From NCBI GenBank assembly GCA_011364905.1, contig RDNZ01000034.1, positions 1 through 29,878 of the forward strand: DNA of 29,878 bases, in the 5' to 3' direction. This DNA is from Candidatus Thorarchaeota archaeon (GTDB taxonomy: Archaea; Asgardarchaeota; Thorarchaeia; Thorarchaeales; Thorarchaeaceae). Position 1 is the first letter of the stretch, and every line of letters begins with the position of its first letter. The position numbers were made by a program, and so were the translations under genes. Under the pieces are notes generated by a model, which was not told the DNA's origin, did not search any database, and saw nothing but the letters and a program-made list of their open reading frames with translations. This document shows, in pieces, positions 6,347-10,446 of the stretch.

Positions 6347-6404
6347 ATCGTGCCCACCATATAGCTCACTCTGAATGATTCTGATTAAGATTTCACGAGT
6401 TTAC

Positions 6405-6641
6405 CTACTTAGTGAAGAATTCTTCTTGATGCTGTTTTTCTTGTCTTTTCTTGAAGTCTCTTCGAATCTTATCGATATCCGATTGTATACAAAAGTGCTC
6501 GACATGTCCACAGACAAGGCAAACATAAGCCTCACACGCTACGTGGGCAAACACTCCATACCAAACAATCTCCCTTGTTCCATATGGCCCGGCTAGATGT
6601 TCACTTCCACAGGATGTACAGATCTTCTTCAATTCATCCAA
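6405..6641 (-). CDS. Small zinc-ribbon protein
   Basis: CTSCGS...CLVCGHVEHF (two CxxC pairs); GGGGTGA Shine-Dalgarno upstream of TTG at 6641. The longer annotated start runs into a tRNA repeat. Confidence 0.7.
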   Translation of the reverse strand: MDELKKICTSCGSEHLAGPYGTREIVWYGVFAHVACEAYVCLVCGHVEHFCIQSDIDKIRRDFKKRQEKQHQEEFFTK

Positions 6642-6714: not shown

Positions 6715-6756
6715 TGGTGAGCTGGACGTGATTTGAACACGTGACCACCGCACTGT
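6715..6756 (-). repeat. Duplicated 3' half of tRNA-Val(GAC), from the anticodon loop to CCA (att-like)
   Basis: tggtgagctggacgtgatttgaacacgtgaccaccgcactgt is 40/42 identical to 8652-8693. Confidence 0.95.
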
Positions 6757-6848
6757 TAACTAGTTTTCATCTTGCATATCTTTGAGATTCAGACGAATTC
6801 ATATATTTTTTATATCCGATTTTCCATCAAATTTCTGAGGGTCTAGTT

Positions 6849-7610
6849 ATGTCACGTGCTGGAGCAAGTTTGTGTGTCGAGGGTTTTGGTAAAATAGTGA
6901 ACATACTAGTAGCATTCGTTGCTGTCTTTTGGTTGCTATTGAAAGCAATCATACAGATGGATGCTTGGCTTCTCGCTCCCTATGATGTTCCTGTTTCAGT
7001 TCTATTTACAGGATTTCTAATACTAGCCTCTGCAAAAGTCATGGAAAAAAAATCTACCCTTTTTTCTATTGTTATGATCGCTATAGGGATTATTATGCAA
7101 GGAGTTGTAATATTCTATGGTCTTTCTTCTACAAGTTTCATTAATGCTGCAGTTCTGGAACCATTCTTTGTAGCGATCTATATCTATTGGTCAGTCATTC
7201 TTGGTCACAACATAGCGAAATCTAGTGGAATTAGTGAATCATCAACTCCAATGGAGCGACTTCCACCATTTGTGTTAGCAGTAATAGGCGCAGTGGGCTT
7301 GTACATCAATCTTCCCTACCTTGTATCAGCATACTTCGTTCCTAGTTATCCTCCATATACTATTCCTGTTGCAAGTCTGCTGACATCACTTATTCTCATT
7401 GGCGCTAGTATGATGTCGCTTCGTTCTCATTCGATTTACTGGATTCTATTCTTCATGGGACTTGGAATCTCTATTGCACCGTATTTTCTGCCTGCAGTTC
7501 TCTCAATGCCATACTACGGCCTGATTTGGTTCGTCGGAGATATCATGTACAAGTTCTTTGGAGTAGCTGCAGTTGCCTATGTTACTCCACCACCAAAATA
7601 CTCGGGGTAG
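6849..7610 (+). CDS. Multi-pass membrane protein (cassette gene between tRNA-Val repeats)
   Basis: 253 aa, about 8 hydrophobic segments; visibly AT-richer than the core genes. Confidence 0.75.
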   Translation: MSRAGASLCVEGFGKIVNILVAFVAVFWLLLKAIIQMDAWLLAPYDVPVSVLFTGFLILASAKVMEKKSTLFSIVMIAIGIIMQGVVIFYGLSSTSFINAAVLEPFFVAIYIYWSVILGHNIAKSSGISESSTPMERLPPFVLAVIGAVGLYINLPYLVSAYFVPSYPPYTIPVASLLTSLILIGASMMSLRSHSIYWILFFMGLGISIAPYFLPAVLSMPYYGLIWFVGDIMYKFFGVAAVAYVTPPPKYSG

Positions 7611-7658
7611 GATGAAACGATGGTTCGTGGAAAGGATATCTCCGGACGTTGAAGTAAG

Positions 7659-7679
7659 TGGTGAGCCGGACGTGATTTG
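7659..7679 (-). repeat. Duplicated 3' end of tRNA-Val(GAC), from the T-loop to CCA
   Basis: tggtgagccggacgtgatttg is 20/21 identical to 8652-8672. Confidence 0.9.
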
Positions 7680-7746
7680 CTGGTTGTATGCTGCGATGTA
7701 GTCCAAGAATCAGTATGTAATGAATGCCACATGGATGACTTTTGCC

Positions 7747-8544
7747 TCACTTCACACCCAAGGCGAACAGAACAGATTTCCTAAATGTCACTCCCTTCTC
7801 CTCTGTCAAGTGTTTTCCCAATGTGTCTAAAGCGGTTTGATATAGTTCATCTAAGCCGGGGCGCTCATCAATGGGTATAGATTCAATGGTATATTGCCAA
7901 CCATAATTCATCATTTGGTGCCACCAATCATGAACCGAAGGATAAACGTAATCGAGATCAAATGTAATGATATCACAGCTGCTAAACTCTGCGTTGGACA
8001 TAATCACATCCCATCCTGCTCTTGTTTCCTTTGAATATCCCACAGGCGCTGAGGGAAGATATGGTTGAACAAGTTTCATAATCCATTCTGAGTCTTCCTG
8101 GAATAACCACGTACTGATTCCCACTTTTCCCCCAGCCCTAAGAACGCGCAGGATTTCGCTCATCACAAGATCTTGATATTTGTATTCATTCTTCTCAAAA
8201 TCGTAACGACGTCCCCAACCTATGAATCCACTCACTATATAATCGAAACTTGCATCGTTAAAGGACATCTCTTCGGCACTCATGACTTGAACTGAAGCAT
8301 TGGAAATACCACACCGTTTAAGCTCAGCAGTAATGTTTTCAACACTCTTCTCCCTTTTGTCTATTCCAGTCACTTGGCCTGTTTTTCCTACTTTCTCCAG
8401 TGCAGGAAACAGCGTGGAGCCTCCCCCAGTTCCAACATCCAATACGTGAGAACCTTTCCTGATCTCGAGCATGTCTACAAGACGATTGCCTAAGACATCC
8501 CAGTAATAGCCCCATGTTGTGGGCTTGTTTCTCAATGGCATCAT
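7747..8544 (-). CDS. Class I SAM-dependent methyltransferase (UbiE/Methyltransf_11-like), cassette gene
   Basis: VLDVGTGGG motif I, VTGID, SFNDASFDYIV, EILRVLRAGG. Confidence 0.88.
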   Translation of the reverse strand: MMPLRNKPTTWGYYWDVLGNRLVDMLEIRKGSHVLDVGTGGGSTLFPALEKVGKTGQVTGIDKREKSVENITAELKRCGISNASVQVMSAEEMSFNDASFDYIVSGFIGWGRRYDFEKNEYKYQDLVMSEILRVLRAGGKVGISTWLFQEDSEWIMKLVQPYLPSAPVGYSKETRAGWDVIMSNAEFSSCDIITFDLDYVYPSVHDWWHQMMNYGWQYTIESIPIDERPGLDELYQTALDTLGKHLTEEKGVTFRKSVLFALGVK

Positions 8545-8651
8545 AGATAACCATCAAAAAGAGCGGCTAGGAGTTCGATAATAGCATTATGAACAAAGCA
8601 GAATATATTCACACCTGCTTTGATTGAATTACTTGCATCCAAATGAGAAAG

Positions 8652-8729
8652 TGGTGGGCCGGACGTGATTTGAACACGTGACCACCGCACTGTCAATGCG
8701 GTATCATAGCCGGGCTAGACCACCGGCCC
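8652..8729 (-). tRNA. tRNA-Val(GAC)
   Basis: Reverse complement GGGCCGG-TG-GTCTAGCCCGGCTATGAT-A-CCGCA TT GAC AG TGCGG-TGGTC-ACGTG TTCAAAT CACGT-CCGGCCC-A-CCA. Confidence 0.97.
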
Positions 8730-8842: not shown

Positions 8843-9064
8843 TTAACTTGTTTCTGAACCAGCTATCCAACCACTGGTTTTTACCCCGTGCTTCTCAAGC
8901 CAATAAATGACAAGCCAGACCGTGGATGCAAGTACGATGAACATTGCAAAGATTGAGTTGATGTACAACGCAGCACCATAATCCATCCCCGGTGGATATC
9001 CAAAAATAAGCACAGAGAAAGTTAGAAATTCAATGAGCACAGCTGCTACTAGTATCAAGAACAT
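8843..9064 (-). CDS. Small two-TM membrane protein
   Basis: 73-aa ORF with two hydrophobic helices; start uncertain. Confidence 0.5.
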   Translation of the reverse strand: MFLILVAAVLIEFLTFSVLIFGYPPGMDYGAALYINSIFAMFIVLASTVWLVIYWLEKHGVKTSGWIAGSETS

Positions 9065-9297
9065 TAGTTTGGAAGTATTCTTCGTGTTCTATCGCCTCTA
9101 ATTACCAATCTGGCATCTGCAAAGATTGGGTCCGGTCAAGCCATTGAAATAGCATACCAAGACCACTATCCAATCTATACACATAATGTCGCCAATTTGC
9201 ATAAACATTGCGACGAGATTCACTCGCTTCATTATCCATCCTGTCAATGTCACGTATTTAATACAAAGCTCAGAAGTAAACTTCTGGAGGACACGTC

Positions 9298-10446
9298 ATG
9301 ACGAAGCGCACAAGGTTACTAGTTCCAATTATTGTTGTTCTATTCATAGCACTGGGCTGTTTTTCATTAGTCAGAGCCGATACACAAGTGCAGGAGGAAA
9401 TCAAAGTCTTCGTGGACACGGATGCAGCTCCTGATGACTTCAGTGCTCTCATGTACCTTCTAAGACATCCATCGGTCACAGTCATTGGGATTGGTATATC
9501 ATGTGGTGTATCCTACGTTGACCGCGGTGTTAGCAACACACTCCGAGTCCTGGAATATTTGGGAATCAGCAATATCCCGGTCGCTGCAGGAAAATACACC
9601 CCTCTAGTAGTTGACCACGCCTTTCCAAAGTCGTGGAGAGAATCAAGTAACAACTCCTATGGACTCGATCTTCCGACAACTAGTCAGACACCCTCAGAAA
9701 TGAATGCTTCTGAGCTCATGATATCGTTGATTAGTGGTGCTCAAGAAAATGTGACCATTGTGTGTCTTGGTCCACTCACTAACATAGCTATCGCACTTGA
9801 AGCTCAACCATCAATCAAATCCAAGATTGACAAGATCCATCTCATGGGTGGAGCAGTTGAGGTTGCAGGCAACGTTGGTCCTGAATCGGGTGGAGCAATC
9901 CCGAACTACGTTGCAGAGTGGAATATGTGGGTTGACCCTCAGGCTGCTGACATTGTTTTCAAGTCTGGAGTTCCTATCACAATGGTCTCACTTGACGCCA
10001 CAAATCATGTCCCAGTGACAGAGGATTTCAAGATTCGACTAGAGGGTGTCATGGTCACTCCGGAGGCACGGTTTGTTTACAACGCTACCACGGTTGGTCT
10101 TTATTTCTGGGACCCGCTTACAGCTGTTTCTCTAACAAATCCCGAGGTCGTGACCTTTGAAGAACACCATATTGCGATTGTAGTTGACTTACTGAATCAT
10201 GAAGGACAGACAAACTCAACTGGAGCTGGTAGTGTGAATGCGATAGTTGCTGTGAATGCAGACGCAGATACCTTTGAAGACCTTTTCATCGGATATATCA
10301 ATGGTCATTTACCTACTACACCTATCACAAGTACTCCAACTACTCCAACAAGTGGCGGTCCAATGGAGCCATTATTGATTTTCGCTGTCATAAGCGGGGT
10401 TGCAGTGGTGGCAATAGGCGCAGTTGTATGTATGCGGAGAAAATAG
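9298..10446 (+). CDS. Nucleoside hydrolase (IU-NH family) with signal peptide and C-terminal membrane anchor
   Basis: DTDAAPDD (DxDxxxDD), LGPLTNIA, MGG...GN, AEWNMWVDPQAA and WDPLTA; N-terminal KR plus hydrophobic stretch; Thr/Pro linker, TM and RRK tail. Confidence 0.9.
   Translation: MTKRTRLLVPIIVVLFIALGCFSLVRADTQVQEEIKVFVDTDAAPDDFSALMYLLRHPSVTVIGIGISCGVSYVDRGVSNTLRVLEYLGISNIPVAAGKYTPLVVDHAFPKSWRESSNNSYGLDLPTTSQTPSEMNASELMISLISGAQENVTIVCLGPLTNIAIALEAQPSIKSKIDKIHLMGGAVEVAGNVGPESGGAIPNYVAEWNMWVDPQAADIVFKSGVPITMVSLDATNHVPVTEDFKIRLEGVMVTPEARFVYNATTVGLYFWDPLTAVSLTNPEVVTFEEHHIAIVVDLLNHEGQTNSTGAGSVNAIVAVNADADTFEDLFIGYINGHLPTTPITSTPTTPTSGGPMEPLLIFAVISGVAVVAIGAVVCMRRK

Follow-up and report, generated by a model that had tools for sequence, protein, structure and literature searches.

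A probable accretion array of one-gene cassettes behind a tRNA-Val gene in Thorarchaeota

Genes and repeats behind tRNA-Val(GAC)

The DNA analysed here (the window) is a stretch of 29,878 nucleotides (nt) that makes up nearly all of contig C31 of a Candidatus Thorarchaeota archaeon, a 3.08-Mb metagenome-assembled genome (MAG) that is 81% complete. Within it, the 2.3 kb between a tRNA-Val(GAC) gene and a conserved gene, c2, hold three small genes set between partial copies of the 3' end of that tRNA. We called tRNAs with ARAGORN and Rfam and assigned protein families with Pfam and PHROG. Genomes are labelled G### (G000 is the window's own), loci L###, contigs of G000 C## and clusters of open reading frames (ORFs) c#. 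From the tRNA outwards, the interval contains the following features (aa, amino acids; TM, transmembrane; SAM, S-adenosylmethionine).

8652..8729, minus strand: tRNA-Val(GAC), anchor of the array; called by ARAGORN and by Rfam RF00005 (57 bits); intron-less, 78 nt, CCA encoded
8545..8651, minus strand: leader of the methyltransferase cassette; begins directly after CCA and holds a conserved AT-rich block (alignment A1)
7747..8544, minus strand: gene of cassette 1, a class I SAM-dependent methyltransferase of 265 aa; Pfam Methyltransf_31, 3e-18
7659..7679, minus strand: fragment 1, a copy of tRNA positions 58-78 that begins in the T loop (21 nt, 1 mismatch); marks the distal end of cassette 1
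6849..7610, plus strand: gene of cassette 2, an 8-TM membrane protein of 253 aa with 8 hydrophobic segments
6715..6756, minus strand: fragment 2, 42 nt with 2 mismatches, tRNA positions 37-78
6405..6641, minus strand: gene of cassette 3, a small Zn-ribbon protein (CxxC...CxxC) of 78 aa; TTG start, GGGGTGA before it
~6347..6362, minus strand: remnant of fragment 3, ~14 nt from about tRNA positions 41-54, cut short and joined to the c2 stop codon
5825..6346, plus strand: backbone gene c2, 173 aa, no Pfam match; distal border of the array, adjoining the island in 10 loci

The tRNA-Val(GAC) gene is 100% identical in four further genomes of the genus. The repeated element is a direct copy of its 3' part and not an attC-type hairpin palindrome; the 21-nt class of copies contains only one strand of the T stem. 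With one more mismatch, fragment 2 extends to 6715..6759 (45 nt) and thereby reaches tRNA position 34, in the anticodon loop. This fragment forms both the distal end of cassette 2 and, according to alignment A4, the proximal site of cassette 3. Shuffled sequence gave 0 matches, against 6 in the real sequence. Read directly on the plus strand, fragments 1 and 2 both have an A in place of the tRNA's G (C73 to T in the tRNA sense), and the sole distal fragment in G010 also has the C73-to-T change.

An earlier note on this DNA had described a tRNA-Val array with 21-nt and 42-nt repeats around the methyltransferase and 8-TM genes, and we could verify its coordinates, its genes and the shared A. It had also counted one gene per interval and no integrase. 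Both observations stand, but a third unit, the Zn-ribbon ORF with its ~14-nt remnant, had been overlooked; this 78-aa gene is the better reading of the ORF overlapping the 42-nt copy. Since fragment 3 is short, its assignment depends on alignment A4 with the distal copies of G002, G008 and G013. The three genes of the array had no mobility, primase, helicase or excisionase match in Pfam or PHROG, and the 8-TM protein had no match of any kind in either database.

Recurrence of the units in other arrays

For comparison we used a genus sample of 28 genomes including the window's own, a wider phylum sample of 81 genomes and 25 related Val loci. Homologs of the methyltransferase with 72-85% identity occur at L087, L088, L089 and L090, all of them between tRNA-Val fragments. 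The unit has rank 1 in the window versus rank 3 or deeper in L087, a locus from an NCBI MAG with the same island and c11-c2-c3, where it lies between an esterase unit and a 494-aa unit. At L089 and L090 it again lies behind fragments, with neighbours that differ from those in the window.

Alignment A1 places the boundaries of this unit. The homology of the window, L089 and L090 starts in the tRNA copy and continues through CTTTCTyAT, and it spans the tRNA copy, the conserved leader and the ORF up to the distal copy. A leader block ~40 nt before the ATG is kept in all four aligned sequences; it is probably the cassette's own promoter. At the far side, the window and L090 have the 21-nt-type boundary in common, the L090 copy being decayed, while L087 and L089 share a 26-nt distal copy 20 nt after the methyltransferase stop. 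Methyltransferase units elsewhere have the G/C version in their proximal copy. Other homologs in the genus, at 36-46% identity, lie at other sites with no convincing fragments close by; we set them aside as probable chromosomal paralogs rather than cassettes. Scanning metagenomes for the tRNA tail together with the leader of the methyltransferase returned only an unrelated tRNA-Val(CAC) locus.

Homologs of the 8-TM protein are scarce: a search of 5.8 billion proteins gave only two, and the 27 other genus genomes gave none. One of the two, with 51% identity (L091), comes from the same island and has tRNA-Val-type fragments on both sides. Homologs of both genes to which the earlier note had drawn attention are accordingly found beside tRNA fragments elsewhere. 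The fragment distal to the 8-TM homolog (L091:3773-3795) combines a tRNA-Ala(GGC)-like T arm with a tRNA-Val-like acceptor end; this single case may, from its sequence, be a hybrid site produced by exchange between arrays.

Homologs of the Zn-ribbon protein, at 53-75% identity, occur in the tRNA-Val arrays of G019, G002, G008, G013 and G006. In alignment A4 the ORF always starts 72-74 nt past a CCA, the homology starts within the tRNA copy, and a copy of tRNA positions 34-78 closes the unit in G002, G008 and G013. Five arrays give the unit four different neighbours, and its rank is 1 in G019, G002 and G008, 3 in the window and 6 or deeper in G013. DNA identity is 82-93% for the Zn-ribbon unit, compared with 75-81% for the backbone gene c2.

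The island across the genus

To see the island as a whole, we retrieved 20 tRNA-Val(GAC) loci from the same genus and clustered their ORFs for gene maps. The backbone is fixed: c9-c1-c4-c5-c10 on the 5' side of the tRNA and c2-c3-c0-c0-c6-c12 on the 3' side. Between the tRNA and c2, the content differs in every species and ranges from 1 to ~10 genes. It is mostly cut by Val 3' fragments, and ~24 of ~33 intervals consist of one ORF; G013 has one unit with five genes. Genes near the backbone (c8, c16, c11, c23) are common to 5-8 species and have mostly lost their fragments, whereas genes near the tRNA are species-specific, a distribution that fits growth at the tRNA end. The window's own genome, searched for the relatives' Val cassettes, yielded distant paralogs only, a few of which are TPR genes near other tRNA arrays.

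The earlier note had proposed a look for empty or variable sites in relatives, and both exist. All 20 genus loci are variable, and in three sister-genus genomes of the same family (G083, G055, G103) c2 directly abuts tRNA-Val. The CCA of G083 lies 15 nt from the c2 stop, and in the sister genera overall c2 lies 15-70 nt from the tRNA-Val 3' end. The same architecture appears in independent assemblies from NCBI, JGI, ENA and Logan.

Within the genus, tRNA-Val(GAC) is also polymorphic for inserts or introns. G000, G002, G010, G018, G019 and G021 have none; other genomes have them at 23/24, 26/27, 39/40 or 48/49, sometimes two per gene. On the 5' side of the window's tRNA, positions 8843-10446, between the tRNA and c9, hold an ORF for a 73-aa membrane protein and, at 9298-10446, a gene for an inosine-uridine nucleoside hydrolase. 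We detected no tRNA fragments there. The pair is present in only 3 of 21 loci (G000, G008, G019), so the 5' side varies too.

End points and proposed mode of insertion

Displaced fragments in L044, L045 and L046 keep a 30-nt insert at position 48/49 that is missing from the current tRNA of the same genome; in G006 the current tRNA itself has the 48/49 insert. A displaced fragment is therefore what used to be the 3' part of the tRNA, and the newest unit supplied the current one. The earlier note had proposed this origin of the current 3' end for the window, and the inserts retained in relatives' fragments, along with the G/C proximal copy at other methyltransferase units, bear it out.

Two features of a cassette are conserved between genomes: the DNA right after its proximal CCA and the 5' limit of its distal copy. 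Across loci, the fragments start mainly at 32-37, an anticodon-loop class (loop 34-40) of ~13 cases, or at 53-59, in the T stem and loop (~18 cases), with a few in minor classes at 45-46 and 49-51. The two repeat lengths in the window are these two genus-wide end-point classes. The two main places are also the classical crossover sublocations of tyrosine recombinases that integrate into tRNA genes; sublocation classes of tRNA integration were reportedly set out by Williams in 2002. The earlier note had taken two end points to imply either two recombinase specificities or a crossover without a fixed site; two specificities may be involved. The end point mostly travels with its cassette, and no recombinase was found.

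We conclude that the interval from tRNA-Val to c2 probably grew by accretion and consists of three cassettes (methyltransferase, 8-TM and Zn-ribbon), each with one gene and each mobile by itself, with the newest next to the tRNA. Each cassette owns the DNA after the CCA of its tRNA-near copy, and its far side is closed by a second, partial copy. A unit would enter by recombination within the 3' part of the tRNA gene, at the T arm or the anticodon loop. It would bring a new 3' part, leaving the tRNA intact, and would push the old 3' part and all older cassettes outward, so that the newest unit always adjoins the tRNA. The cassettes point in either direction and carry promoter-like leaders, and the enzyme would be encoded outside them.

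Several points weigh against this interpretation. All of the data come from MAGs and short contigs. The window's own genome, at 81% completeness, has no match to PF00589 or PF00239 (tyrosine and serine recombinases) or to PF00078 (reverse transcriptase). PF00589 is present in only 9 of the 28 genus genomes, on short contigs, and no tRNA or fragment lies within 1.5 kb of it. In two cassette families the distal end point is not constant (58 versus 53 for the methyltransferase, 37 versus 56 for the 8-TM protein). We observed no excised circle and no within-population variant, and units that spread only by homologous exchange between related arrays could give the same patterns.

Arrays at other anchors

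Fragment arrays also occur in the same genome at tRNA-Ala, tRNA-Cys and tRNA-Leu. The actin gene has a 76-nt copy of its 3' end 0.7 kb downstream, and the 16S trailer has at least six copies. The view that the tRNA-Val locus is a second array of the same kind, in a system not tied to one tRNA, is thus well founded. The same repeat architecture at anchors as unrelated as actin and the 16S trailer argues against one sequence-specific enzyme. The companion suggestion that cassettes are exchanged with the tRNA-Ala array fared worse: none of six Ala-array genes had a homolog in the 25 Val loci, and the hybrid-looking fragment in L091 was the only one of its kind.

Three further tRNA-related features were seen in this genome. 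At G000:C25:58653-62037, tRNA-Cys(GCA) anchors another array of this kind; two copies of its 3' part lie behind it, one of 25 nt (60691-60715) and one of 72 nt (58653-58724), and the first interval holds a TPR-like gene. Just past the window's end, at G000:C31:29886-29936, positions 1-51 of tRNA-Ala(GGC) are repeated with 100% identity, 147 nt upstream of the intact gene; this 5' stump suggests that a whole new tRNA copy was brought in at that site. Inside the window, at 775-919 on the minus strand, we found a tRNA-like gene of ~145 nt with the acceptor stem GCGTCCG/CGGACGC, the T arm GGTTCGAATCC and an encoded CCA. It probably has two introns, and both ARAGORN and Rfam miss it at default settings.

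Candidates for the engine

As the engine of the array we rank first a recombinase that acts in trans and is either unrecognised or not assembled; we hold this tentatively, at somewhat less than an even chance. ORF clustering and Pfam revealed no integrase or integrase remnant in the 25 related Val loci. We also considered recurrent genes of the island as hidden recombinases and rejected c16 (an amidohydrolase), c23 (a solute-binding protein), c7 (a TPR protein) and c8, which resembles PKD/CARDB surface proteins in Atlas (weakly, score 0.79); c17, c22 and c11 had no Pfam or PHROG match.

Second, and a possibility we also take seriously at lower confidence, comes homology-guided copying at DNA breaks, perhaps breaks made by a family of probable nucleases that dock on tRNA genes. 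The proteins of this family, here called HTH-HNH, combine 3-5 helix-turn-helix (HTH) repeats with a twice-repeated CxxC..HRKDG..CxxCH..H motif that is invariant in 18 sequences; in the larger forms the added N-terminus is acidic and of low complexity. The family probably carries a tandem HNH nuclease domain. Its match to PF01844 has an E value of 0.0018 and 18.8 bits, below the cut-off of 21.4, and PF01844 has no match in the window's own genome. An AlphaFold2 (AF2) model of the C-terminal part has a predicted local distance difference test score (pLDDT) of 86. HNH nucleases make up nearly all of its structural neighbours, at low scores: Foldseek gives E ~0.5, and the best VIA matches are SciA (Z 4.7, root-mean-square deviation (rmsd) 4.8 over 73 residues) and Cap5 (Z 4.6, rmsd 4.0 over 72 residues). 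The own genome has an intact copy, a protein of 508 aa, at G000:C49:6766-8292 (L105:559-2085) and a remnant at G000:C93:106-372; the genus loci are L092-L120.

The HTH-HNH gene ends at or close to a tRNA gene in most of 30 loci: its stop codon overlaps the tRNA 3' end or lies 3-45 nt from it. The adjoining tRNAs include Val-GAC, Val-CAC, Val-UAC, Ala-GGC, Leu-CAG, Thr and others, and all of them bear introns, whereas the window's tRNA-Val has neither an adjoining nuclease nor an intron. Next to tRNA-Val the family is found in G013, G014, G003 and G011. HTH-HNH units split older tRNAs at ~51-56 or at 23/24 and leave 5' and 3' stumps (L093, L117), which often flank the gene on both sides, and the split at ~51-56 matches the T-arm class of end points. 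The family is present in 16 of the 28 genus genomes and, in the phylum sample, is limited to the genus and one sister genus.

These observations allow a specific scheme, which we regard as possible but rather unlikely. HTH-HNH nucleases would cut intron-less tRNA genes, and repair would copy in a cassette lying between two copies of a tRNA tail, with no recombinase involved; introns or inserts would protect the tRNA. The docking, the introns of every nuclease-adjoining tRNA, the position of the splits and the restriction of the family to this lineage all speak for such a scheme, as do the doubled motif and the HNH-like model, and it would account for the unrelated anchors, actin and the 16S trailer, too. 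Against it, 12 of the 28 genus genomes have arrays without the family, so that we treat the family as a candidate only, and the window's array has no member. The HNH assignment is weak at the scores given above, copies of 21 nt are short for homology-guided repair, and the first gain of a distal copy by a new gene is left unexplained.

A different possibility is that the fragments are scars of successive, larger integrase-bearing elements such as viruses or plasmids, each decayed to one gene. Elements with tyrosine integrases classically leave behind partial tRNA copies that start in the T loop or the anticodon loop, which bioRxiv 10.1101/2022.07.05.498093 supports, as does the tycheposon paper on remnants; the five-gene unit in G013 would also fit. 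We nevertheless consider this improbable. The same 0.3-1 kb units occur with the same boundaries in 4-5 genomes at different ranks, about three quarters of the intervals hold one gene, and neither the 25 loci nor the own genome contain an integrase remnant.

An RNA-mediated (retro) origin of the 5'-truncated copies was rejected, as there is no reverse transcriptase and some fragments hold an insert that a mature tRNA would lack; all 21 tRNA genes encode CCA, which makes the CCA uninformative on this point. Short repeats can be random and MAG contigs can be chimeric, yet chance matches, assembly artefacts or functional split-tRNA halves are a highly improbable source of these repeats given the empty shuffles and the agreement among independent assemblies, and split halves were rejected because the tRNA gene is intact and the copies have no 5' partners.

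Implications and comparison with known systems

The accessory gene pools of Asgard archaea are large, and the way in which these archaea acquire genes matters for models of eukaryote origin. The empty sites and the recurrence of the same units in other positions show that, at the locus described here, genes come and go singly at a tRNA gene, with no recognisable integrase. Should the engine prove to be new, either a hidden recombinase or copying triggered by a nuclease, it would be a new route of gene flow and would also offer a new explanation for the unusual tRNA intron load of these archaea. The searchable literature yielded no account of arrays like these. More speculatively, and with doubt on our part, gene capture in Thorarchaeota might be an integrase-free archaeal counterpart of integrons, in which spare 3' ends of highly conserved genes (tRNAs, the 16S trailer and actin) act as portable joining sites. 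Breaks, perhaps those made by HTH-HNH nucleases, would be the points at which cassettes are copied in, and tRNA introns would protect against these nucleases.

Free-standing homing endonucleases beside tRNA genes, with intron-protected targets, are known from T4 SegB and from mobE-type 'collaborative homing'. The likeness concerns the HTH-HNH lead only: a nuclease gene docked on a tRNA gene and an adjacent tRNA copy with inserts. The window's array has no nuclease, however, and such homing normally builds no cassette arrays.

Archaeal elements of the SSV and pNOB8 types, which use tyrosine integrases, leave tRNA 3' fragments. As in our array, the tRNA is restored by sequence that the element brings, and the repeat covers the tRNA 3' end back to the anticodon loop (~45 nt) or the T loop (~21-26 nt). 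The array differs in that it has no integrase gene, intact or split, and in its tiny units, many of which are stacked.

The tycheposon islands of Prochlorococcus come closer. They too are anchored at a tRNA, have units flanked by partial tRNA copies, let newcomers displace older units, carry accessory cargo and vary between relatives. Tycheposons have their own site-specific integrase and hallmark replication genes and measure several kb (bioRxiv 10.1101/2020.12.28.424599). The units of our arrays, in contrast, mostly comprise one gene in 0.3-1 kb, have no integrase or hallmark genes, and occur at non-tRNA anchors as well.

Integrons, in particular sedentary chromosomal integrons and CALINs (clusters of attC sites without an integrase), likewise form rows of mostly single-gene cassettes, each with a terminal copy of the recombination site. 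In both systems the same cassettes stand in other orders in relatives, and growth apparently takes place at the end near the anchor. Unlike integrons, the array has neither IntI nor attC hairpins, the repeated site copies the anchor gene's own 3' end, and the cassettes point in either direction and bring promoter-like leaders of their own. In its behaviour the locus resembles both an integron array and a tycheposon-type tRNA island, yet it lacks the integrase that defines each of them.

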